From an uncultured virus (IMG/VR IMGVR_UViG_2061766007_001950) (Duplodnaviria; Heunggongvirae; Uroviricota; Caudoviricetes), in IMG/VR virus record IMGVR_UViG_2061766007_001950: DNA of 34,200 nucleotides; one strand, written 5' to 3'. Shown here piece after piece: positions 4,674 to 20,328 of the stretch. The notes under the pieces were generated by a model. That model was not told the DNA's origin. It saw only the letters and a program-made list of their open reading frames with translations, and did no database searches. Each line of letters begins with the position of its first letter. Within the stretch, counting starts at the first letter, position 1. The position numbers were made by a program, and so were the translations under genes.

Positions 4674-5425
4674 CAGCAAAAGAATATTTATCACAGGCAC
4701 GGACACTGGACATGCGTATCAAGTCCAAGCTCCAGCAGATTGAATCACTGAACGATCTGGCTACCTCCTGCACCACTGTCTACAGCGACATGCCGAGAAA
4801 CCCGAATCGCGGCGGCTCCAAAGTAGAACGCGCGGTGCTTAAGATCATCGAGGTCGAGGACAGCTTAAAGCGTGACGTGGAGGATCTGGTGGAATTGAAG
4901 AAAGAGATCATGCACACAATTCATTCCGTGTCCGACGTCGAACTGCAAACCCTGCTGGAGAAGCGGTACCTCTGCTTCCTCTCGTGGGAGAAGATTGCGG
5001 TCGACATGCATTACAGCATCCAGCATATCTTCCGGATGCACGATCAGGCACTTTCTAAAGTTTCTGCCATCATGAGNNNNNNNNNNCTGAAGAAGGAGAT
5101 AATGCACACGATCCATTCCGTGTCCGACGTCGAACTGCAAACCCTGCTGGAGAAGCGGTACCTCTGCTTCCTCTCGTGGGAGAAGATTGCGGTCGATATG
5201 CATTACAGCATCCAGCACATCTTCCGGATGCACGATCAGGCACTTTCTAAAGTTTCTGCCATCATGAGNNNNNNNNNNAAAGGTAGAACGTGCGGTGCTT
5301 AAGATCATCGAGGTCGAGGACAGCTTAAAGCGTGACGTTGAGGATCTGGTGGAACTGAAAAAAGAGATCATGCAGACGATCCATTCCGTGTCCGACGTCG
5401 AACTGCAAACCCTGCTGGAGAAGCG
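4670..5425 (+). CDS. RinA/ArpU/DUF1492-like late transcriptional activator with sigma70 region-4-type HTH (main copy 4670-5076, plus redundant fragments)
   Basis: MTAKEYLSQA start; LLEKRYLCFLSWEKIAVDMHYSIQHIFRMHDQAL HTH; typical position just before HNH/terS. Confidence 0.82.
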
Positions 5426-5435
5426 NNNNNNNNNN

Positions 5436-5482
5436 AGTAAATGAGAGTGAATGAGAGTTTCCTTTTATGATATTGTTATGAT
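5436..5482 (+). promoter_or_regulatory. Putative late promoter: 10-bp-period ATGAGAGT repeats plus extended -10
   Basis: AGTAA-ATGAGAGTGA-ATGAGAGT at 5436-5458; TG-T-TATGAT at 5474-5482; no clear -35. Confidence 0.55.
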
Positions 5483-5504
5483 GGACAAGATGAAACAACG
5501 GACG

Positions 5505-5540
5505 AGCCTTGCAGGACGTAAACCCTGCAGGGCTTTTCTT
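5505..5540 (+). terminator. Intrinsic terminator-like hairpin upstream of HNH
   Basis: AGCCTTGCAGG, 8-nt loop, CCTGCAGGGCT, then TTTCTT. Confidence 0.65.
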
Positions 5541-5620
5541 ATGAACGGAGGTGACGCAAGGTGCCAAGNNNNNNNNNNAAAACCCTGCAGGGCTTTTCTT
5601 ATGAACGGAGGTGACGCAAG

Positions 5621-5989: not shown

Positions 5990-6073
5990 GGGCGGTCTGA
6001 ATCTCTACAGCACATGCTCCGCAGAACGGGCGTGGGGTCACGTGTGCGCGTGCGCGGTTTCAAACGGGGAATA
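5983..6073. other. Probable cos/packaging initiation region
   Basis: GC-rich non-coding stretch between HNH and terS, the usual cos location in HNH-containing HK97-like phages. Positional inference only. Confidence 0.45.
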
Positions 6074-6283
6074 NNNNNNNNNNGCGGAAGGACGGTACGT
6101 AAAGGCTGAGCAGGTGCACCACATCAAACCGCTGTCCGAAGGAGGCAGCCATAATGATGAGAACCTGATGAGTTTATGTACGGCATGCCATGCAAAGATC
6201 CATGCCGAGAGAGGCGACCGCTGGCACACCCACTCCGATGGGTAGGGNNNNNNNNNNTACCCCAGAAATGTGAGGTGATTATC

Positions 6284-7256
6284 ATGGCTAAGGACGGTAC
6301 CAACCGTGGCGGTGCCCGGATGGGTGCCGGAGCCAAAAAGAAGCCCTTGGTCGACAAGATCAATGAAGGCAATCCGGGCAAGAGAACGCTGACTGTCATC
6401 GACTTCGATTCGCACGCAGCCGATTTGGAAGGTCAACCGATGCCCAAGCCGTCAAAGCTCCTGTCTGCGAAACAAAAAGATGGGAAAAAGCTGCAGGCGG
6501 CAGCAATCTACAAAATTACATGGGAGTGGCTGCATGAACGCGGCTGCTCCTCTTTNNNNNNNNNNTTGTCTGCAAAACAGAAGGACGGGAAAAAGCTGCA
6601 GGCGGCAGCGATCTACAAAATTACATGGGAGTGGCTGCATGAGCGCGGCTGCTCCTCTTTAGTTTCCCCTCAGCTACTTGAGCGCTATGCCATGAGCTGT
6701 GCAAGGTGGATTCAATGCGAAGAGGCCGTGACGGAGTTTGGTTTCCTTGCCAAGCACCCCACCACGGGAAACGCGATCCAGAGTCCATACGTTGCGATGG
6801 GACAGAACTATATGAGCCAGACCAATCGGCTCTGGATGGAGATCTACCAGATCGTGAAAGAAAATTGTGCCTCGGAGTATACCGGCACCAACCCACAGGA
6901 TGATGTGATGGAACGGCTGCTCAGGGCGAGGCGCGGAGAAATNNNNNNNNNNTGGCTTCCTTGCCAAGCACCCCACCACGGGAAACGCGATCCAGAGTCC
7001 ATATGTTGCAATGGGACAGAACTACATGAGCCAGACTAACCGGCTCTGGATGGAAATCTACCAGATCGTGAAAGAAAATTGCGCCTCGGAGTACACCGGC
7101 ATGAGTCCGCAGGATGATGTGATGGAACGGCTGCTCAGGGCGAGGCGCGGAGAAANNNNNNNNNNTGGCACCAATCCGCAGGATGATGTGATGGAACGGC
7201 TGCTCAGGGCGAGGCGCGGAGAAANNNNNNNNNNAGCGAGGCGCGGAGAAATGTAA
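6284..7256 (+). CDS. terS: Terminase small subunit (P27-family-like), composite of fragments
   Basis: MAKDGTNRGGARMGAGAKKK...GNPGKR; LLERYAMSCARWIQCE; GNAIQSPYV; ends DDVMERLLRARRGEM*. Confidence 0.88.
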
Positions 7257-11645: not shown

Positions 11646-11676
11646 CACAGATATATCGANNNNNNNNNNCATAAAA

Positions 11677-11716
11677 GACTTGCTATTACTGGCTTTTAGA
11701 GTGATATATGTACTAC
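11677..11716 (+). promoter_or_regulatory. Array repeat motif copy 1 (GACTTGCTAT-N10-TAGAG...TACC)
   Basis: GACTTGCTAT TACTGGCTTT TAGAGTGATATATGTACTACC, followed by GGAGG and ATG 11751. Confidence 0.75.
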
Positions 11717-11750
11717 CGAAAAAGCACAGAAAGCAAAGGAGGATTCAAAA

Positions 11751-12727
11751 ATGATCGTACATTACAGAGTAAACGGAAAAGAAAGAAAAAGGCTGGCCGA
11801 GGTCATCGCCAAGGAAATCGGAGTCGATGCCATTTATCAGGGTGCACCGACCTTTTCCTACCAGATGGACTACTTCACGGTCGACCGCGAAGGCGCTCTG
11901 GTCTTTGACGACGAGAACTACAGCGACGAGGTCGAGAGAGTTTTCAACGCCATCGCCGACGCAGGCTTCACCCCGGATGAGGGCGAGGAATACGAAGGCA
12001 CCGGGCTTGCGATCCAGATGCCGATGATGACCGGCGATGAGATTTCCAGACTGGAAGCCCTGATCGAGTCCAAGGAAAGCCTGATCAAGAAAGCCATCGG
12101 CGCGGACAGCCTCGCAGTTGGCGAGAAGGACGGCAAGCTCGACTTCCCTTGGTTCAAGGCCGACGCGGAGCCGGACGAGATCATCGCCTACACCCACTTC
12201 GTTACAGCCCTCTGCCGGACAGCGAAGGAAGCCACACGCATCACCGGGAAAGACAAGCCGGTCGAGAATGAGAAGTACGCCTTCCGCTGCTTCCTTCTCC
12301 GGATCGGATTCATCGGGGATGAATACAAGGTAAGCCGCAAGATCCTGCTCAAGAACTTCTCCGGAAGCTCCGCATGGAAAAGCGGCGCACCGNNNNNNNN
12401 NNAAAGGCCATCGGAACAGACAGCCTCGTAGTTGGCGAGAAAGACGGCAAGCTCGACTTCCCTTGGTTCAAGGCAGACACAACCCCGGAAGAGATCAAGG
12501 CCTACATGGATTTCGTGACAGCCCTCTGCCGCATGGCAAAGGAAGCCAAGCGCGTCACTGGGAAAGACAAGCCGGTCGAGAATGAGAAGTACGCATTCCG
12601 CTGCTTCCTCCTCCGTCTCGGATTCATTGGCGACGATTATAAGCAGAGCCGAAAGATCCTGCTGCAGAACTTCTCCGGAAGCTCCGCATGGAAAAGCGGC
12701 ACACCGACAAAGGAGGTGCAGGCATGA
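11751..12727 (+). CDS. Phage 'virulence-related protein'-type hypothetical (two alleles tiled; third fragment at 12949-13114)
   Basis: GKERKRLAEVI...YQGAPTFSY...LDFPWF...ENEKYAFRCFLLRIGFIGDEYK..RKILLKNFSGSSAW; family recognised from memory, function unknown. Confidence 0.75.
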
Positions 12728-13110
12728 GGATGATCAGACCAGAACAACTAAGGCACCTACGTGAGACCTACCCTGCCGGTACACGCGTCGAGCTCATCCA
12801 GATGGATGATGTTCAGGCACCNNNNNNNNNNATTCAGGCACCGCCTGCCGGTACCTGCGGAACGGTGACCGGAATCGATGATACCGGAAGCCTGATGGTG
12901 CGCTGGGATAACGGCTCCGGCCTGAATGTGATCTTCGGNNNNNNNNNNAAAAGACAAGCCGGTCGAGAATGAGAAGTACGCCTTCCGCTGCTTCCTCCTC
13001 CGGATCGGATTCATCGGTGATGAATACAAGGTCAGCCGCAAGCTCCTGCTCAAGAACTTCTCCGGAAGCTCCGCATGGAAAAGCGGCGCACCGGCAAAGG
13101 AGGTGCAGGC

Positions 13111-13344
13111 ATGAGGATGATCAGACCAGAACAGCTGAGGCATCTGCGTGAGACCTACCCTGCCGGAACACGCGTCGAGCTCATCCAGATGGATGACGTT
13201 CAGGCACCGCCTGCCGGTACCTGCGGCACGGTAACCGGAATTGATGATACTGGCAGCCTGATGGTGCGCTGGGATAACGGTTCCGGCCTGAATGTGATCT
13301 TCGGAGTTGATGTGGTCAGAAAGGTGGTGGACGCGAATGACTAA
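13111..13344 (+). CDS. DUF4314-like small SH3-type protein (other copies at 12724-12938, 13381-13516, 13767-13902)
   Basis: [59 protein letters not shown]-coupled to the upstream gene. Confidence 0.8.
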   Translation: MRMIRPEQLRHLRETYPAGTRVELIQMDDVQAPPAGTCGTVTGIDDTGSLMVRWDNGSGLNVIFGVDVVRKVVDAND

Positions 13345-13508
13345 CCTGATCCGCGAGCAGATCCTCGCCGNNNNNNNNNNGCCTGCCGGTACCTGCGGCA
13401 CGGTAACCGGGATTGATGATACCGGAAGCCTGATGGTGCGCTGGGATAACGGCTCCGGCCTAAATGTGATCTTCGGAGTTGATGTCGTCAGGAAGGTGGT
13501 GGACGCGA

Positions 13509-13685
13509 ATGACTAATCTGATCCGCGAGCAGATCCTCGCCGTCCGGGATACCGGCCTTACCAACATGTTTGATATCCCGGCAGTCCAGAGGATCGCCTT
13601 TGACCTCGGTTACTACGAGCTGGTTGACTGGCTCACAGACCACCGAAAAGAGTATGTAAATTTCATCATGACGGGTGAGGAATAA
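13509..13685 (+). CDS. DUF5049-like small protein (second copy ends at 14071)
   Basis: MTNLIREQILAVRDTGLTNMFDIPAVQRIAFDLGYYELVDWL..HRKEYVNFIMTGEE*. Confidence 0.8.
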   Translation: MTNLIREQILAVRDTGLTNMFDIPAVQRIAFDLGYYELVDWLTDHRKEYVNFIMTGEE

Positions 13686-13693
13686 GCCCTCCT

Positions 13694-13723
13694 CCAAGGG
13701 AGCCAGCAGGCTCTTTTGGTCGT
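13694..13723 (+). repeat. Hairpin plus TCGT at the end of array unit 1 (identical copy at 14080-14109)
   Basis: CCAAGGGAGCC-AGCA-GGCTCTTTTGG, an 11-bp stem with two G-U pairs, followed by TCGT. Confidence 0.7.
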
Positions 13724-14138
13724 TAAAAAAGATGTGAAAATATAGCAGAAATGACTNNNNNNNNNNACCTGCAGGTACCTGTGGCACGGTAACCGGAATC
13801 GATGATACCGGAAGCCTGATGGTACGCTGGGATAACGGCTCCGGCCTGAATGTGATCTACGGAGTCGATGTGGTCAGAAAGGTGGTGGATGCGAATGACT
13901 AACATGATCCGCGAGCAGATCCTCGCCGTCCGGGACACCGGCCTTACCAACATGTTTGATGTCCCGGCAGTCCAGAGGATCGCCTTTGACCTCGGGTATT
14001 ACGAACTGGTGGACTGGCTTACAGACCACAAAAAAGAGTATGCAAACTTCATCATGACGGGCGAGGAATAGACCTCAAACCAAGGGAGCCAGCAGGCTCT
14101 TTTGGTCGTTAAAAAAGATGTGAAATTATAGCAGAAAT

Positions 14139-14179
14139 GACTTGCTATATCCTCCGAGTAGAGCGAATATACACATACC
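14139..14179 (+). promoter_or_regulatory. Array repeat motif copy 2
   Basis: GACTTGCTAT ATCCTCCGAG TAGAGCGAATATACACATACC AAAAG, then GGAGG and ATG 14203. Confidence 0.75.
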
Positions 14180-14202
14180 AAAAGACAAGGAGGAAAGCGA
14201 AA

Positions 14203-14564
14203 ATGACAATCAACGAAGGAACCAGAAAATTCAGACTGCCAAACCCAACCACCCCGGAAGACCTCGAATGCCGCTGGAGCAAGCTCCTGAACTTCGGNNN
14301 NNNNNNNCCAGAAAATACAGACTGCCAAACCCGACCACCCCGGAAGACCTCGAATGCCGCTGGAGCAAGCTCCTGAACTTCGGAGACAAGGTGATCATCG
14401 CCGGATACTACTACAACGGCAAAGGCCAGCCTTCCTACTTCGGAGCAGTTTACGAGCATCTGGATGACGACATGACCTGCGAAGGAACGATCGGCCTAAG
14501 AGCAGTCAGCGAGGTTGAGTTTGAAGACGACGGGCACGCGATGGCATGGGCGATGCAGCAGTAA
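14203..14564 (+). CDS. Small acidic hypothetical protein (about 95 aa merged)
   Basis: GGAGG RBS; MTINEGTRKFRLPNPTTPEDLECRWSKLLNFGDKVIIAGYYY...EFEDDGHAMAWAMQQ*. Confidence 0.8.
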
Positions 14565-14577
14565 GGAGGCAAAAATC

Positions 14578-15111
14578 ATGATGAAGACAAACAACGCATA
14601 CTTTGAAAACCTGAGACAGATCGCAGAAAAATGGGAACAGGAAAAGGCCGAGCGCAAAGAGCGCAAAGCCCAGATCCTCGATACCTACGGATGGGACTCG
14701 GAGGAGCTCAAGGCTTGGCACGAAGAGGATCAGGCAGCCACCTACCCGATTCCGCAGGGAACCTGTAAAGCCTACCGCGCATTTCTGGGCACGCTGGAAC
14801 ATGGCGAGGATGAGATCGAAATGAACGACTTCCTCTGGNNNNNNNNNNACACGATGGAGCATGGCGAGGATGAGATCGAAATGAACGACTTCCTCTGGGA
14901 TCGTGAGGTCGACGACTTTGTGGACGCCCTCCGGAAAGCCGGATTCGACAGTTTCATCTACACCAACCAGAGCACGGCGGTGATGGAAAACCTCCACGGC
15001 TTTGCCAAGGCAGGCTGCACCATGACCGGCCTGACGACGATCACAAGGCGCGAGCGTCGCTTCGGAGAATACAGGGATGAGGAGATCCTCGGCATCCATT
15101 TCGACCTGTAA
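14578..15111 (+). CDS. Hypothetical protein (about 160 aa merged; allele fragments at 15692-15826 and 16024-16105)
   Basis: GGAGG RBS; MMKTNNAYFENL...DFLWDREVDDFVDALRKAGFDSFIYTNQSTAVMENLHGFAKAGC...EILGIHFDL*. Confidence 0.8.
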   Translation: MMKTNNAYFENLRQIAEKWEQEKAERKERKAQILDTYGWDSEELKAWHEEDQAATYPIPQGTCKAYRAFLGTLEHGEDEIEMNDFLWXXXXTMEHGEDEIEMNDFLWDREVDDFVDALRKAGFDSFIYTNQSTAVMENLHGFAKAGCTMTGLTTITRRERRFGEYRDEEILGIHFDL

Positions 15112-15137
15112 AAAAACTTCGAAAATGTAGAAAATAT

Positions 15138-15179
15138 GACTTGCTATTATCTCCGTTTAGAGTGATATATGTACATACC
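15138..15179 (+). promoter_or_regulatory. Array repeat motif copy 3
   Basis: GACTTGCTAT TATCTCCGTT TAGAGTGATATATGTACATACC AAAAG, then GGAGG and ATG 15213. Confidence 0.75.
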
Positions 15180-15212
15180 AAAAGAGAACCACACAAAACG
15201 GAGGTAAACAAA

Positions 15213-15618
15213 ATGAGAAACGCATACGAACTGAGAAACCACTTTTTCCTTGAAGACTACAACACAGCGATCACCAGAGAAGACTTCGAGACCTTCTTCA
15301 CTAAGACAAAGGAAAAGGTCACCTTCACCTTTAACGGCTGGGACGGCAAGAGCTACGACGGTGAGAGCCGCACAGCAACGGTCTACCGCACTACCATCGA
15401 GGGATTCGAGGATGTCAGGCTGATCAAGGTCGGCAAAGGCCTCCACTACATCGAAGAGGACACNNNNNNNNNNCACCATCGAGGGATTCGAAGAGGTCAG
15501 GCTGATCAAGGTTGGCAAAGGCCTCCACTACATCGAAGAGGACACCGAGGTGCTGGAGAAGGCCACAGGAGAATACCACAAAAGAGCAAGCTGGCTGGTA
15601 GACGTCAGGAGGAAGTAA
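15213..15618 (+). CDS. Hypothetical protein (about 110 aa merged), apparently present in only some variants
   Basis: MRNAYELRNHFFLEDY...FTFNGWDGKSYDGESR...LEKATGEYHKRASWLVDVRRK*. Confidence 0.8.
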
Positions 15619-15642
15619 GAACGAGGCAAAGTAAACACGCCA

Positions 15643-15673
15643 GAGAGCAGCCCGGATGGGGCTGTATCTCGTA
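15643..15673 (+). repeat. Hairpin plus TCGT at the end of the array (further copies near 16130, 16214 and 16966)
   Basis: GAGA-GCAGCCC-loop-GGGCTGT-A-TCTC-GTA; the loop varies (GGATG/GGCTG/GGACG) while the stem is invariant. Confidence 0.7.
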
Positions 15674-15836
15674 CAGGGAAGNNNNNNNNNNTTTTACAAA
15701 CACACTGGAACATGGTGAAGATGAGATTGAGATGAACGACTTCCTCTGGGATCGCGAAGTTGACGACTTTGTGGACGCCCTTCGGAAGGCCGGATTCGAT
15801 AGCTTCATCTACACCAACCAGAGCACNNNNNNNNNN

Positions 15837-16013
15837 GTTGAATAAATTCTTGAGAATCTACTATGCAAGAGTGATGGAGGTGTATAATTGCTAAACGAGT
15901 AAAAGTGGTATGTACCGACTAGGTTGGCAAAGGGCCAGCCTTTTTGTAGTACAACGAATACAGAAGAGAAACCTGCTAGCAAATTCAAATTAGCACTTGA
16001 ATTTTGTTAGCAG
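15837..16013 (+). mobile_element. IS110-family element fragment: transposase C-terminus (15838-15894) and structured right end
   Basis: Translates LNKFLRIYYARVMEVYNC*, matching the NKFLRIYY.RV C-terminal motif I recognise from Firmicutes IS110 transposases; more AT-rich than its flanks; hairpins at 15921-15941 and 15973-16013. Confidence 0.7.
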
Positions 16014-16251
16014 NNNNNNNNNNCCTGACAACAATCACAAGGCGCGAGCGCCGCTTCGGAGAATACCGGGACGAAGAGATTCTTGGCATTCACTTCACAC
16101 TGTAAAGCATAACAAAACTGAGAACATCAGAGAGCAGCCCGGCTGGGGCTGTATCTCGTACAGGGAAGTCGCACATGGCGGCTATTTTTTATGNNNNNNN
16201 NNNGAAACACGCCAGAGAGCAGCCCGGACGGGGCTGTATCTCGTACAGGGA

Positions 16252-16276
16252 AGTCGCACATGGCGGCTATTTTTTA
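16252..16276 (+). terminator. Intrinsic terminator-like hairpin directly before terL (also near 16167 and 17003)
   Basis: AGTCGC-ACATG-GCGGCT-ATTTTTT. Confidence 0.6.
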
Positions 16277-16299
16277 TGCTCTTTTGGAGGTGATGACCT

Positions 16300-19200
16300 A
16301 TCAGAAAACTTGAAAATTATACACCGACGCACTTCATGGCAGAGGATTCCTACTATGACGAGTACGCCGCTGACTTTGCTGTTGCCTTTATCGAGAGCCT
16401 TCAGCACACCAAGGGTGAATGGTATAAGAAGCCCTTTGAACTGATCGACTGGCAGGAGCAGATCGTGCGAGACGTATTCGGAACACTGAAGCCAAACGGC
16501 TACCGGCAGTTTACGACGGCCTACGTCGAGATCCCGAAGAAGATGGGCAAATCCGAGCTTGCTGCCGCCATCGCGCTGTACCTTACCTGCGCGGACGGTG
16601 AACAGCGAGCNNNNNNNNNNTCTTCAGCACACCAAGGGTGAATGGTATAAAAAGCCCTTTGAACTGATCGANNNNNNNNNNCGAGATCCCGAAGAAGATG
16701 GGAAAGTCCGAGCTTGCTGCTGCCATCGCGCTGTACCTTACCTGCGCGGACGGCGAACAGCGAGCCGAGGTCTATGGCTGTGCCGCTGATGTCAATCAGG
16801 CCAAGATTGTATTTGATGTGGCTGTGGATATGGTGATGCTCTGCCCTGCTCTCGAACGNNNNNNNNNNAGAGGTGCTGGAGAAAGCCACCGGAGAATACC
16901 ACAAGAGAGCAAGCTGGCTGGTAGACGTCAAGAGGAAGTAAGAACAAGGCAAACGAAACACGCCAGAGAGCAGCCCGGATGGGGCTGTATCTCGTACAGG
17001 GAAGTCGCACATGGCGGCTATTTTTTATGCCTTTTTGGAGGTGATGACCTATCAGAAAACTGGAAAATTATACACCAACGCACTTCATGGCTGAGGATTC
17101 CTATTACGACGAATACGCCGCCGACTTTGCTGTTGCCTTTATTGAGAGCCTTCAGCACACCAAGGGTGAATGGTATAAAAAGCCCTTTGAACTNNNNNNN
17201 NNNNNNNNNNNNNNNNNNNNNNNNNNNNNNNNNNNNNNNNNNNNNNNNNNNNNNNNNNNNNNNNNNNNNNNNNNNNNNNNNNNNNNNNNNNNNNNNNNNN
17301 NNNNNNNNNNNNNNNNNNNNNNNNNNNNNNNNNNNNNNNNNNNTGAGGTCTATGGCTGCGCTGCCGATGTCAATCAGGCCAAGATCGTATTTGATGTGGC
17401 TGTGGATATNNNNNNNNNNNNNNNNNNNNNNNNNNNNNNNNNNNNNNNNNAAACAAGTCCACACGTACCATCGTATATAATCCGACCAACAGCAAATACA
17501 AAGTCCTGTCAGCGGATGTAGCCAACAAGCACGGTTTCAATACCCACGGAGTGATCTTTGACGAACTTCATACACAGCCGAACAGGAAGCTATATGATGT
17601 CATGACCAAAGGCAGCGGCGATGCGAGAAAGCAGCCGCTTTTCTTTTTGATCACAACTGCAGGTGACAACACCAACTCCATCTGCTGGGAGGTGCACCAG
17701 AAAGCGCTGGATATCCTTGAAGGCCGCAAGATTGACAAGACCTTCTATCCGGTGATNNNNNNNNNNAATTGACAAGACCTTCTATCCGGTGATCTACGGC
17801 GCTTCCGAGGATGAAGANNNNNNNNNNNNNNNNNNNNNNNNNNNNNNNNNNNNNNNNNNNNNNNNNNNNNNNNNNNNNNNNNNNNNNNNNNNNNNNNNNN
17901 NNNNNNNNNNNNNNNNNNNNNNNNNNNNNNNNNNNNNNNNNNNNNNNNNNNTGGCGGCCTTGACCTCTCCTCCACTACGGACATCACGGCCTTCGTGCTG
18001 GTCTTCCCTCCAGAGGACGAGGACGATAAGTTTGCCGTGCTCCCGTACTTCTGGGTGCCGGAGGATACGCTGGACATCCGTGTGCGGCGAGACCACGTCC
18101 CTTACGATCTGTGGGAGAAGCAAGGCTATCTCTTNNNNNNNNNNATACTTCTGGGTGCCGGAGGATACGCTGGATATCCGTGTGCGGCGAGACCACGTCC
18201 CTTATGACCTGTGGGAGAAGCAGGGCTATCTCTTCACGACGGACGGCAACGTCGTCCACTACGGCTTCATCGAGCAGTTCATCGAACACCTCGGTGAGCG
18301 CTTCAATATCCGGGAGATCGCGTTTGACCGCTGGGGAGCTGTCCAGATGGTGCAGAATCTTGAAGGCATGGGCTTCACAGTCGTGCCGTTCGGTCAGGGC
18401 TTTAAGGATATGAGCCCACCTACCAAGGANNNNNNNNNNTAAAGATATGAGCCCACCTACCAAAGAGCTCATGAAGCTGACGCTGGAACAAAAAATCGCG
18501 CACGGCGGCCACCCGGTGCTCCGCTGGATGATGGACAACATNNNNNNNNNNTCCCATGCCTTCGAGATTCTGCACCATCTGGACAGCTCCCCAGCGGTCA
18601 AATGCAATCTCCCGGATATTGAAGCGCTCACCGAGATGTTCGATGAATTGCTCAATGAAGCCGTAGTGGACGACGTTGCCGTCCGTCGTGAAGAGATAGC
18701 CTTGCTTCTCCCACAGATCGTAAGGGACGTGGTCNNNNNNNNNNCGAGGTCTACGGCTGTGCTGCCGATGTCAATCAGGCCAAGATCGTATTTGATGTAG
18801 CTGTGGATATGGTGATGCTCTGCCCGGCTCTCGAACGGCACGTTACCATCAACAAGTCCACACGTACCATTGTCTACAATCCGACCAACAGCAAATACAA
18901 AGTCCTGTCGGCGGATGTGGCCAACAAGCACGGTTTCAATACCCACGGAGTGATCTTCGATGAGCTCCATACACAACCGAACAGGAAGCTATATGATGTC
19001 ATGACCAAGGGCAGCGGCGATGCAAGAAAGCAGCCGCTTTTCTTTTTGATCACGACTGCCGGGGACAACACCAATTCCATCTGCTGGGAGGTGCACCAGA
19101 AGGCACTGGATATCCTTGAAGGCCGCAAGATCGACAAGACCTTCTATCCGGTGATCTACGGCGCTTCCGAAGATGAAGACTGGACTGATCCCAAGGTCTG

Positions 19201-20328
19201 GGAAAAAGCCAACCCGTCTCTGGGCATCACGGTGGATATCGAGAAAGTACAGGAGGCCTGCGACTCTGCCAAACAGAATCCCGGCGAAGAGAATGCCTTC
19301 CGGCAGCTCCGCCTCAATCAGTGGGTGAAGCAGTCCGTCCGCTGGATGCCAATGGACAAGTGGGATAAATGNNNNNNNNNNGACTGATCCTAAGGTCTGG
19401 GAAAAAGCGAATCCATCTCTGGGCATTACGGTGGATATCGAGAAGGTACAGGAAGCCTGCGACTCTGCCAAGCAGAATCCCGGCGAAGAAAACGCCTTCC
19501 GGCAGCTCCGCCTTAATCAATGGGTGAAGCAGTCTGTCCGCTGGATGCCAATGGACAAGTGGGATAAATGTGCCTTCCCGGTTGATGAAAAAATGCTGGA
19601 AGGCCGGGTCTGCTACGGCGGCCTTGACCTCTCCTCCACTACGGATATCACGGCCTTCGTGCTGGTCTTCCCTCCGGAAGACGAGGACGATAAGTTTGCC
19701 GTGCTCCCATACTTCTGGGTGCCGGAGGACACGCTGGACATCCGTGTTCGGCGAGACCACGTCCCTTACGATCTGTGGGAGAAGCAAGGCTATCTCTTCA
19801 CGACTGACGGCAACGTCGTCCACTACGGCTTCATCGAGCAGTTCATCGAACATCTCGGTGAGCGCTTCAATATCCGGGAGATCGCATTCGACCGCTGGGG
19901 AGCTGTCCAGATGGTACAGAATCTTGAAGGCATGGGCTTCACGGTCGTGCCGTTCGGTCAGGGCTTTAAAGATATGAGTCCACCCACCAAGGAGCTCATG
20001 AAGCTGACGCTGGAACGGAAAATCGCGCACGGCGGCCACCCGGTGCTCCGCTGGATGATGGACAACANNNNNNNNNNACAGAAAATCGCGCACGGTGGCC
20101 ACCCGGTGCTCCGCTGGATGATGGACAACATCTTCATCCGAACCGACCCGGCTGGCAACATTAAAGCAGATAAGGAAAAATCCACAGAAAAGATCGACGG
20201 TGCCATCGCCACCATCATGGCGCTGGATCGTGCGATCCGCTGTGGTAACGATACGGGTGCATCGGTCTATGACAGCCGAGGCATCCTTTTCATTTGNNNN
20301 NNNNNNTCGAGGCATCCTTTTCATTTGA
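16300..20328 (+). CDS. terL: Terminase large subunit (composite; probable ATC start at 16300, first ATG at 16336)
   Basis: LIDWQ; Walker A EIPKKMGKS; Walker B VIFDELH; ITTAG; GGLDLS nuclease motif; EKIDG; stop 20326-20328. Confidence 0.95.

Follow-up and report, generated by a model that had tools for sequence, protein, structure and literature searches.

A short DNA motif recurs at the heads of accessory genes that lie between a DNA methyltransferase gene and terL, the large terminase gene, in the genome of an uncultured Caudoviricetes virus (IMG/VR IMGVR_UViG_2061766007_001950; the whole 34.2-kb stretch analyzed is referred to here as the window). Judged from sequence, these repeats are probably copies of a conserved promoter cassette that heads accessory units and the integrase gene in temperate phages of gut Clostridia, and that would define a transcription class separate from the late operon. 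A separate class is proposed because the cassette heads the integrase gene and the units, is absent before the HNH gene, terS, and the structural genes, and because a terminator stands ahead of terL.

The proposed cassette is ~50 nt long (~100 nt with its flanks), is promoter-like, and belongs to a widespread phage family whose packaging and head module is HK97-like and whose gene set is of the Heliusvirales type. Each copy lies on the coding strand, in the brief interval that follows the preceding gene, where it may be read as a sigma-A-type promoter and would drive a small operon (unit) of accessory genes between the methyltransferase gene and terL. A conserved hairpin followed by CTCGT closes some units, and because this hairpin element and an intrinsic terminator stand before terL, the late packaging genes would be shielded from the units. 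Related prophages also have this cassette ahead of a large serine integrase gene, and expression is most likely early or at the time of lysogeny. The units behave as evolutionary modules, with relatives carrying other genes behind their own copy of the cassette.

Motif copies in the window and in relatives

The pattern GACTTGCTAT-N10-TAGAGYGA has exactly three matches in the window, at 11677, 14139, and 15138, all on the + strand and separated by 2462 and 999 bp. No further match is found in the window at up to 3 mismatches; 0.01 would be expected by chance, and 0 of 100 shuffles reach 3. After each copy come an AT-rich box, TACC, an A-rich leader, GGAGG, and an ATG (11751, 14203, and 15213), so that the three motif-led units with a common leader layout reported in an initial annotation of this DNA are borne out by exact pattern matches and start codons. 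Copy 1 (11673..11722; profile E 6.7e-14) heads unit 1, copy 2 (14135..14184; exact pattern and profile) heads unit 2, and copy 3 (15134..15184; profile E 8.4e-16) heads unit 3. The piece bearing copy 1 resembles the nearest genome, whereas the piece bearing copy 2 is 100% identical to a viral contig (L285).

That nearest genome (G001; 3.2 Mb), which shares 52% of the window's sampled words, has an uninterrupted 55.6-kb contig (G001:C17) in which all three copies recur with identical spacers, at distances of 1205 and 852 bp; we used this contig as a clean reference (its locus is L009). Because the same copies and spacers stand in an uninterrupted contig, the repeats are real, and only the length of the array in the window is an artefact. 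In clean form the array consists of motif, ORF1 (open reading frame 1), DUF4314, DUF5049, and hairpin; then motif, Nmad4, and DUF7698; then motif and ORF6; and finally two hairpins, terL, portal, and protease, the portal being labeled from its position after terL and clustering only. With a profile made from 78 copies, nothing further turns up in this contig, and neither there nor in the window does a copy lie upstream of the HNH gene or terS. When G001 was scanned at up to 2 mismatches, 6 motif matches were obtained, all in two prophage loci, and the reversed control gave 0. The second locus (G001:C77; L010 1-6238) is a piece of a second related prophage with four cassette-led units in the same slot before terL. 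A C5-methyltransferase gene is followed there by motif, ORF1-like gene, and DUF4314; by motif, amidoligase, gamma-glutamyl cyclotransferase, and Zn-ribbon; by motif and Nmad4; by a degenerate motif and a 57-aa ORF; and by hairpins and terL.

Pattern scans of viral and species-genome collections returned at least 140 and at least 136 stretches, respectively; as the pattern fixes 16 positions, some single matches in unrelated organisms must be due to chance. Among the matches listed there are at least 222 nonredundant motif loci, 75 of them with 2 to 5 copies. All copies lie on one strand in 72 of these 75 multicopy loci, at a median spacing of 1065 bp, and a ribosome-binding site (RBS), start codon, and ORF follow 283 of the 327 copies among the matches listed, at a median distance of 72 nt (5 to 95%: 59 to 88). 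The hosts among these matches are mostly Clostridia (Lachnospiraceae, Oscillospiraceae, Ihubacter, Alterileibacterium, Anaeromassilibacillus, and Gudongella), with some Negativicutes. Isolates that carry 2 to 4 copies include Anaeromassilibacillus senegalensis An867, Alterileibacterium massiliense Marseille-P3115T, and Ihubacter sp. rT4E-8.

A sample anchored on terL and a profile anchored on the first block of the motif were designed to avoid part of the pattern bias. For the former, 160 loci were fetched via the TerL protein alone (71 to 100% identity) and searched with a profile. They contain 188 motif copies, every one upstream of terL on the terL strand; none falls inside terL, none on the other strand, and none in the 654 kb that lie downstream. 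Among the 105 loci with at least 3 kb of upstream sequence, 79 have one copy or more (0, 1, 2, 3, and 4 copies in 26, 16, 44, 18, and 1 loci). An RBS, start codon, and ORF at the proper distance follow 158 of the 188 copies; for positions drawn at random from these loci, the figure is 492 of 3760. The median gap between the preceding stop codon and the motif is 43.5 nt, and the last copy stands 250 to 1000 nt before terL. Between phages whose flanking genes are 65 to 78% identical, the motif region is 80 to 92% identical.

The motif is confined to prophages in the four whole genomes scanned, where host genes lack it. In three of these genomes (1.5 to 2.9 Mb), exact and one-mismatch matches all fall within single 19- to 34-kb regions that include the pre-terL cluster; two-mismatch matches elsewhere look like chance, the controls giving 0 to 2 per genome. 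A motif equally common before ordinary host genes, which would have spoken against a phage system, is thus not what these scans show. The pre-terL cluster is the main motif site but not the sole one. In several records, 1 or 2 extra copies lie on the strand of the cluster at a distance of 13 to 32 kb. In four prophages, five of these distal copies immediately precede genes whose products combine Resolvase, Recombinase, and Zn_ribbon_recom domains, and six more copies precede members of one protein family (f22), of which two were scanned and both have the same three domains, making them serine recombinases. While it is true that no recombinase is visible in the window, related prophages carry large serine integrases headed by the same motif.

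Promoter-like anatomy and variant forms

Anatomy was drawn from 109 distinct instances in a profile anchored on the first box only (ACT[TG]G[ACT]TAT) and a downstream start. With the A of ACT as 0, G+23 and A+26 (equivalent to -14 and -11) are each present in 108 of 109, and T, A, G, and A at +19 to +22 are each kept in 80 to 85. Farther downstream there are A+37 (89/109), C+38 (78/109), C+39 (80/109), and A+42 and A+43 (102/109 each), and on the other side A at -5 (95/109) and T at -2 (88/109), in profile numbering. This can be read as a sigma-70-type promoter with a -35 box T(T/G)G(C/A)TA, a 17-nt spacer, G-14, a -10 box (G/T)A(A/T)TAT containing A-11, an A at +1, and a leader of ~35 nt; an A/T-rich stretch lies upstream of the -35 box. 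G-14, A-11, the T-G at -35/-33, and a 17-nt spacer are contacts of sigma A itself.

Most loci that appear to be without the motif carry a variant with the same places and spacing, GACTGG(C/A)TAT-N10-TGACGGTAATAT, and a further variant reads TTGATA-N17-TAATAT. Counted by locus, 78 have the first form (class I) only, 15 the second (class II) only, 1 both, and 11 neither. The forms grade into each other instead of making two clean promoter classes, since several of the loci with neither carry intermediates (such as ACTGGATAT-N10-CAGAGGTAATAT or GACTTGATAT-N10-TAGAGGTAATAT).

An imperfect palindrome, TACACAAT-N12-16-ATTGTGTA(G/C)TATAT, is found 25 to 90 nt upstream of many motif copies in relatives (L286, L287, L354, L361, L396, and L398) and is a candidate operator. 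The copies in the window keep only its right half, e.g., ATGTAGAAAATAT before motif 3. Several known signals were also set beside the motif by eye: the LexA box of Firmicutes, the Spo0A box, SPO1 late promoters, and promoters of the sigma-D/sigma-28, sigma-H, and extracytoplasmic function (ECF) types. They were discarded because spacing or key bases do not suit both motif types. A search of Rfam returned nothing at E ≤1 but two chance-level rows.

Several points weigh against reading the cassette as a promoter of this kind. A simple sigma-70 consensus scan called none of the three copies, as each box agrees with the consensus at only 3 or 4 of 6 positions, and in T-type copies the register of the -10 box is ambiguous. 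Bases are conserved outside the boxes (GAC at -38 to -36 and AGAG at -18 to -15), leaving room for an extra reader, and the two boxes change together between lineages, which could mean a dedicated phage factor. In loci derived from the motif search, conservation at the 16 fixed positions exists by construction because the pattern fixed them. Genes in relatives were called with a crude ORF caller on one strand only, and of six public runs recorded as RNA, which contain about half of the stretch, the four examined consist of short contigs of mixed strains that are uninformative on transcript starts and ends, strand, and expression. The early or lysogenic timing, for its part, is drawn only from context.

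Competing explanations

The covarying boxes could be explained by a dedicated phage-encoded reader, whether a sigma-like protein, an activator, or a repressor, in which case the cassette would be the operator or promoter of an integrase and accessory regulon and would be inactive with host sigma A alone. We consider this possible but unlikely. Invariant positions outside the -35 and -10 boxes would suit such a reader, as would boxes that covary while their spacing is kept, classes that are nearly exclusive per phage, a cassette that is never found before host genes in four whole genomes and is the same across hosts of different families, and the palindrome upstream of many copies. However, the invariant G-14 and A-11, the T-G at -35/-33, and the 17-nt spacer are sigma A's own contacts, the variants grade, the class pattern may be due to common descent, and no candidate protein was identified. 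A late promoter for the packaging genes, driven by an Ltr-type activator, is an improbable explanation. The candidate activator is a 141-aa protein, encoded 3.2 kb upstream and ahead of the HNH gene, that scores 21.4 bits against DUF1492 (just below the cut-off of 21.5), matches PHROG 36 (E 3.5e-27) and PHROG 248 (E 1.5e-11), and has no NCBIfam match. Proteins of this superfamily activate late operons in Gram-positive phages, and the promoters described lie upstream of terS (PMC3753634). The short distance from the last motif copy to terL would fit this, but here no copy precedes the HNH gene or terS, the region after the Ltr-like gene is unlike the motif by eye, an intrinsic terminator lies between the units and terL, and the cassette also heads integrase genes, which are not late genes.

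The initial annotation proposed that units are exchanged by recombination at the repeats. In a form resembling the PeSL cassettes of T4-type phages, cassette and hairpin would be short homologies for unit excision, insertion, and swapping by homologous recombination, possibly besides a promoter role; this we regard as doubtful. Every alternative unit has its own cassette copy, the cassette is better conserved than the surrounding genes, and metagenome contigs branch exactly at it. Comparison of relatives with 88% identity or more gave 183 events that could be replacements or indels, and their unique ends of homology pile up at the cassette edges, with 13 left ends at -100 to -60, 15 at +60 to +100, and 22 right starts at -100 to 0, where ~1.7 per bin are expected. 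Nevertheless, the excess over ordinary gene boundaries is small: a breakpoint lies within 100 nt of 36 of 101 motif sites and of 95 of 389 ordinary gene starts (odds ratio 1.7, p 0.03, for observations that are not independent). Few breakpoints fall in the core (0 to +60; 2 left and 1 right), although these are hard to read either way because high-scoring segment pairs extend through the conserved core wherever the crossover lay. A single clean indel in 18 involves the motif (unit 3), and its shorter allele keeps no motif at the junction, an outcome that crossover from motif to motif cannot yield. No concerted evolution was seen, copies being barely more alike within than between genomes in their variable parts (0.42/0.33, 0.48/0.42, and 0.42/0.41), and there is no general stem-loop beside the motif. 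Exchange at the repeats therefore gains little from the small breakpoint excess, the one indel, and the lack of homogenized copies.

It is very improbable that the motif copies are site-specific recombination sites, of an integron-like attC or pseudo-att kind, on which the serine recombinase of the family acts, which would make this a true gene-cassette system. Units are gained and lost, and the motif is directly upstream of large serine recombinase genes in related prophages, but it is found 5' of each ORF with constant spacing to the RBS and start codon, shows no dyad symmetry in the sequences read, remains intact beside the integrase gene in integrated prophages, where attP would be split, and is missing from the junction of the sole clean unit indel. 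We give almost no credence to an assembly artefact, in which the repeats would come only from concatenated variant contigs. Haplotype pieces are indeed interleaved in the window, and many gene parts are duplicated for that reason; for the motif copies, however, the artefact is refuted by the three copies and spacers of the uninterrupted contig, alongside many independent assemblies, and holds only for the duplicated gene pieces.

Hairpin elements and the approach to terL

In the promoter cassette reading that we favor, a hairpin element closes some of the units. Unit 1 and the array end were initially described as followed by hairpins of different sequence (13694-13723 and 15643-15673). Both hairpins exist, as folds of the clean copies confirm, and both match one covariance model (R1) and are copies of one conserved structured element, a hairpin plus CTCGT; the clean-contig equivalent of the first is among the training rows of the model. 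The element ending unit 1 occupies 13677..13738 (stem 13694-13723), with a second-haplotype copy at 14063-14124 (R1 E 3.6e-4 and 1.2e-3 for the two). The first pre-terL copy is at 15626..15687, and variant pieces lie at 16113-16174, 16198-16259, and 16949-17010 (R1 E 1.3e-5 to 7.4e-5 for all copies); all these elements are on the + strand.

Across relatives, 82 of 128 loci have CTCGT within 190 nt before terL, directly after a hairpin. When 40 of these elements are aligned, including the clean unit-1 hairpin, the inner helix is 90.5% paired, and four of its five pairs show two-sided changes. The covariation score is 0.300 versus 0.148 in shuffles, a value that 0 of 500 shuffles reach, and slid controls are lower; the outer helix is weak in the same register (63.8% paired). 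R1 finds 89 matches at E ≤0.01 in 1.24 Mb from 100 sources, of which the 40 training rows are matches by construction, and all lie on the terL strand upstream of terL. Most are pre-terL, while ~10 loci have an extra copy at an internal unit end, in most cases with a motif within the next ~15 to 70 nt.

The unit-1 hairpin folds at -19.6 kcal/mol (z -2.7) in the clean copy. As the hairpin-TCGT element has no U-run after its stem, it is not a canonical intrinsic terminator by that feature. The second pre-terL hairpin (16252..16278, + strand; terminator scan and fold), AGTCGC..GCGGCT followed by ATTTTTTAT, has the stem-loop and U-run that define an intrinsic terminator and stands ~25 to 60 nt before terL; a hairpin with a T-run precedes terL in 98 of 119 distinct relatives. 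The idea of a general promoter-ORF-hairpin unit, part of the initial annotation, fits some units only, because random windows are on average more structured than the 70 nt that precede the motif (motif versus random mean, -12.7 versus -15.2 kcal/mol; 15% versus 29% at ≤-18). Most motif copies have no hairpin in front, and the leaders of the window phage are unstructured when folded.

The 5' end of terL lies at 16300..16610 (+ strand), with the first ATG at 16336 and Pfam TerL_ATPase and TerL_nuclease assigned on the clean copy. In relatives (L285 to L443) a peptide, (M)RKLKKY..F(M)A, is conserved after GGAGG, 12 codons ahead of the first ATG, and the codon at the upstream start position is ATG, TTG, ATA, ATC, or ATT (ATC at 16300 in the window). 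This suggests that terL may start 12 codons before its first ATG, at the non-AUG codon ATC 16300. In L290, L295, L312, L341, and others, 40 to 90 nt before terL, a terminator hairpin sits between a -35-like TTGAAG or TTGTAA and a -10-like TATTTT, which are 17 to 18 nt apart. Such a promoter with stem-loop, reminiscent of PeSLs, is a candidate late promoter for terL; at 16230-16280 in the window, the -35-like box is poor.

The window as a composite of haplotypes

The continuous 4.6-kb array of the initial annotation (11670-16290) is a product of scaffolding. The window has 101 N-runs, mostly of exactly 10 N, and thus 102 pieces, six of which are exactly 51 nt; 12 N10 gaps fall inside the array interval. 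Self-comparison shows that adjoining pieces within 10.8 to 17.3 kb overlap each other as variants of 76 to 100% identity and those of the array interval as variants of 85 to 98% (e.g., 12090-12392 and 12404-12706 at 85.5% and 13382-13756 and 13768-14142 at 91.8%). When mapped on clean relatives, pieces resemble either G001:C17 (95 to 99.6%) or L285 (99 to 100%). Because the pieces split in this way, the scaffold holds alternative alleles in tandem: the window mixes at least two phage haplotypes, with one allele placed after another. Motif copies 1 and 3 are on pieces of one haplotype and copy 2 on a piece of the other. Parts of ORF1, DUF4314, DUF5049, DUF7698, and the pre-terL hairpins are present 2 to 4 times in the interval. 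It is this overlap of haplotype pieces that repeats gene parts and extends the array to 4.6 kb, compared with a true length of ~2.6 kb in the clean contig (L009 13267-15873).

Every gene in the window is fragmented or partly repeated, terL, for instance, extending over 16336-20294 against ~1.6 kb expected. Among phage records, the nearest are four weak partial matches, with "NatCom" phages at 77% identity over 6% of the query. One 177-bp piece, 15837-16013, lies between two L285-like pieces and has no match in G001, the virus record G002, the phage records, or ~440 fetched loci; it contains a terminator-like hairpin at 15921-15941 followed by a T-run.

Unit genes and their turnover

All unit genes are on the + strand. 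Unit 1 opens with ORF1, of which codons 1 to 214 are at 11751..12392 (tblastn 98.6% over residues 1-214) before an N10 gap at 12393 cuts the gene. Its product has 220 aa in the clean copy, belongs to no Pfam family, matches PHROG 2443 only, and has no match among PDB sequences. The pieces at 12403..12938, which self-overlap at 85 to 94%, are assembly redundancy and not additional genes; they comprise the L285-like 3' end of ORF1 and 5' part of DUF4314 (12403-12821, 99.8% to L285) and a third variant (12832-12938). Next, 12949..13370 (tblastn 100%) holds the 3' end of ORF1 (to ~13114), the DUF4314 gene (13111-13344; Pfam E 2.3e-29 in the clean copy), and the start of DUF5049, the last gene of the unit, which is placed at 13509..13685 (tblastn 98.3%; Pfam E 1.1e-30). 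Unit 2 comprises a 91-aa Nmad4-domain gene at 14203..14564, with an N10 gap inside (14298-14307; Pfam E 7.3e-22 in the clean copy; tblastn), and a 157-aa DUF7698 gene at 14579..15111, also with a gap (14839-14848; Pfam E 4.3e-14; tblastn). The sole gene of unit 3 is ORF6 (107 aa; 15213..15618, gap at 15464-15473; tblastn), for which no Pfam, PHROG, or NCBIfam match was found.

Unit 3 is a 446-bp presence/absence polymorphism made up of 26 nt, motif, leader, ORF6, and ~20 nt. The clean contig carries this block, which is missing from L285, whose terL is 100% identical and in which the DUF7698 stop is joined to the pre-terL hairpin by 22 nt, with no motif left. The latter allele is represented in the window by pieces of 15692..16193 (15692-15826 and 16024-16193, + strand, 100% to L285), where the end of DUF7698 runs directly into the pre-terL hairpins. 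Both unit-3 alleles are therefore inside the window scaffold, and their presence in a single sample indicates that the slot is evolving now.

Unit content varies widely between relatives with a rough order kept. An ORF1-type gene and DUF4314 come first, then DUF5049, DUF6809, or others; amidoligase, cyclotransferase, and Zn-ribbon follow, and then DUF7698, DUF7678, Nmad4, ORF6, or others, the slot adjoining terL being the most variable. Behind 214 motif copies from 116 loci, the first gene is of ORF1/amidoligase type in 87, DUF7698 in 19, Nmad4 in 9, ORF6-like in 6, a serine recombinase in 6, DUF7678 in 4, family f21 in 4, and a singleton in 23; no ORF was called in 31, and other small families make up the remainder. 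The units are thus real evolutionary modules, and the region is built, as first described, of codirectional units with the same promoter-like motif at the head of each and with content that is not fixed across relatives. The pair DUF7698 and DUF7678 has a cassette between its members in some relatives and none in another (L349 versus L352, L353, and L393), so cassettes can be lost or gained without the gene. One contig from an RNA library (run X5) links L009 14448 to 15332, a junction that would omit unit 2, but with a depth of 2 and only 24 letters on one side it falls below the level advised for reliability and was set aside.

The small ORFs were initially described as often acidic, and five of the six unit proteins are, at isoelectric points of 4.5 to 4.9. 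Their genes fall in families of unknown function (DUF4314, DUF5049, Nmad4, and DUF7698). The company they keep, two methyltransferases, a S-adenosylmethionine (SAM) synthetase-like gene, an amidoligase, a cyclotransferase, and the Nmad domain, suggests a role in DNA or protein modification, which would fit counterdefense. ORF1 (L009 13349-14011), which most often comes first behind the cassette, has only a C-terminal tail of ~73 residues in common with the phage amidoligase (L010 1441-2391; 40% identity, E 3e-16), its N-terminal part being different and unassigned. In protein-cluster look-ups, ORF6 and ORF1 retrieve only viral clusters that are unnamed or named "amidoligase."

Upstream of the array, the clean contig has, in order, an SNF2 helicase gene, a small gene, the 141-aa DUF1492-like regulator gene, the HNH gene, terS (Terminase_4), the SAM-synthetase-like gene, and a ParB-N6/N4 methyltransferase gene. 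The array does split terS (~6275-7154 in the window) from terL (from 16336), although the SAM-synthetase-like and ParB-methyltransferase genes are also between the two. Farther upstream are genes for a PD-(D/E)XK nuclease, an Enc34-type single-stranded DNA-binding protein, a family-A DNA polymerase, and a D5-type primase-helicase and a VRR-NUC gene. Between the DUF1492-like and HNH genes (L009 10070-10175; window ~5080-5620), TTATGAT occurs twice as a direct repeat, and a hairpin plus T-run and an RBS come after it, making this a candidate binding region for a late activator. The 100-nt spacer between HNH and terS (L009 10543-10642; window ~5990-6275) is unusually G+C rich with short GC repeats; in HNH-associated packaging systems a cos site is expected near this region.

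Comparison with known systems

The closest described system appears to be the PeSL cassettes, for which promoter and terminator activity and mini-circles, products of recombination between neighboring elements, have been shown experimentally (Arbiol et al. 2010, PMC2839356; Comeau et al. 2014, PMC4122927). The two systems share a repeated regulatory motif conserved over ~100 bp, in a plastic part of the genome, directly upstream of small genes of unknown function, and variable gene content; here too, a putative promoter would come with each gene, and terminator-type hairpins would shield late virion genes. All 188 copies of the terL-anchored sample lie in the variable gap upstream of terL, with genes of DUF, Nmad4, or amidoligase type or of no family. 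There are also differences. The phages here are temperate, HK97-like, and hosted by Clostridia, unlike the lytic T4-like myoviruses. The PeSL promoter is a strong early promoter of sigma-70 consensus with an AT-rich region upstream, whereas the present boxes, themselves preceded by an A/T-rich stretch, match 3 or 4 of 6 positions and their activity is predicted from sequence alone. A stem-loop is part of each PeSL, whereas here a hairpin precedes the motif at ~10 internal junctions among 100 sources. PeSL indels are bounded by two elements and leave one, chimeric, whereas the sole motif indel here (1 of 18) leaves none. Finally, the cassette also heads the integrase gene.

Morons of lambdoid and other temperate phages, as reportedly presented by Juhala et al. 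and Hendrix et al. in 2000, are isolated insertions without relation to one another; each forms an autonomous transcription unit that has a promoter and a terminator and is expressed from the repressed prophage. Unit 3 is similar in being an extra block of promoter-like cassette and gene between features that are adjacent in a near-identical relative, before a terminator and beside late genes; the gene lies between features joined by 22 nt in L285, with 446 bp more in the clean contig and the window. It has its own promoter-like cassette, lacks its own terminator, and shares the pre-terL hairpins. The difference is that all units of a phage, and those of hundreds of relatives, share one cassette and one dedicated slot. 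Among mycobacteriophages, the start-associated sequences of cluster K and the stoperators of cluster A are short, highly conserved, oriented repeats before many genes. They are alike in standing at a fixed distance before genes and differ in sequence, hosts, and placement, and we claim no homology. An integron attC is the 3' inverted repeat of a promoterless ORF and works with IntI, attI, and Pc; the motif here is 5', has no dyad, and is accompanied by no integrase in the window, and relatives carry serine, not tyrosine, recombinases 13 to 32 kb away.

The Ltr systems (RinA/ArpU/LtrA-C) are comparable as phage-specific promoter types in the packaging region of Firmicutes phages, with a DUF1492-like (LtrB-type) gene nearby (PMC3753634), and the 141-aa DUF1492-like protein supplies a cognate gene in this phage. 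Ltr-dependent promoters stand upstream of terS and contain phage-specific repeats (Quiles-Puchalt et al. 2013, PMC3753634). The cassette, by contrast, is absent before HNH and terS and recurs ahead of the integrase gene and the accessory units, with a terminator between it and terL.

For "Candidatus Heliusvirales," the marker set comprises TerL, portal, major capsid protein, head protease, DNA polymerase I, helicase, nuclease, and two unknown proteins (de Jonge et al. 2024, PMC11283538). Among these, Pfam searches of the clean contig and its relatives identify TerL, Clp protease, Phage_capsid, DNA_pol_A, SNF2 and D5 helicases, and a PD-(D/E)XK nuclease. The paper notes methyltransferase and SAM-synthetase genes as common, and its main text does not mention promoters (PMC11283538). 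The cassette was not found in the literature searched, nor were papers on DUF4314 or DUF5049 together with phages.

Implications

The lineage to which these phages belong, or which they resemble, is among the most widespread in human and animal guts, and gene regulation in it is barely known. As the cassette is kept nearly letter for letter across several bacterial families, it offers a sequence handle by which the integrase and the swappable accessory genes can be listed in thousands of genomes, and it lets one ask when the accessory genes are expressed and seek the protein that reads it. It is also a repeat at which short-read assemblies break and misjoin, and scaffold "arrays" of this kind need to be checked against uninterrupted contigs.

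More tentatively, the cassette may belong to a dedicated phage-borne regulon, in which a coevolving factor would read the boxes and switch on the integrase gene and exchangeable units for DNA modification or counterdefense apart from the late genes, with cassette and hairpin as portable junctions. If so, it would represent a PeSL-like cassette system in temperate phages of Gram-positive gut bacteria and would provide a sequence tag for accessory genes that are expressed early or during lysogeny throughout one of the commonest gut phage lineages.

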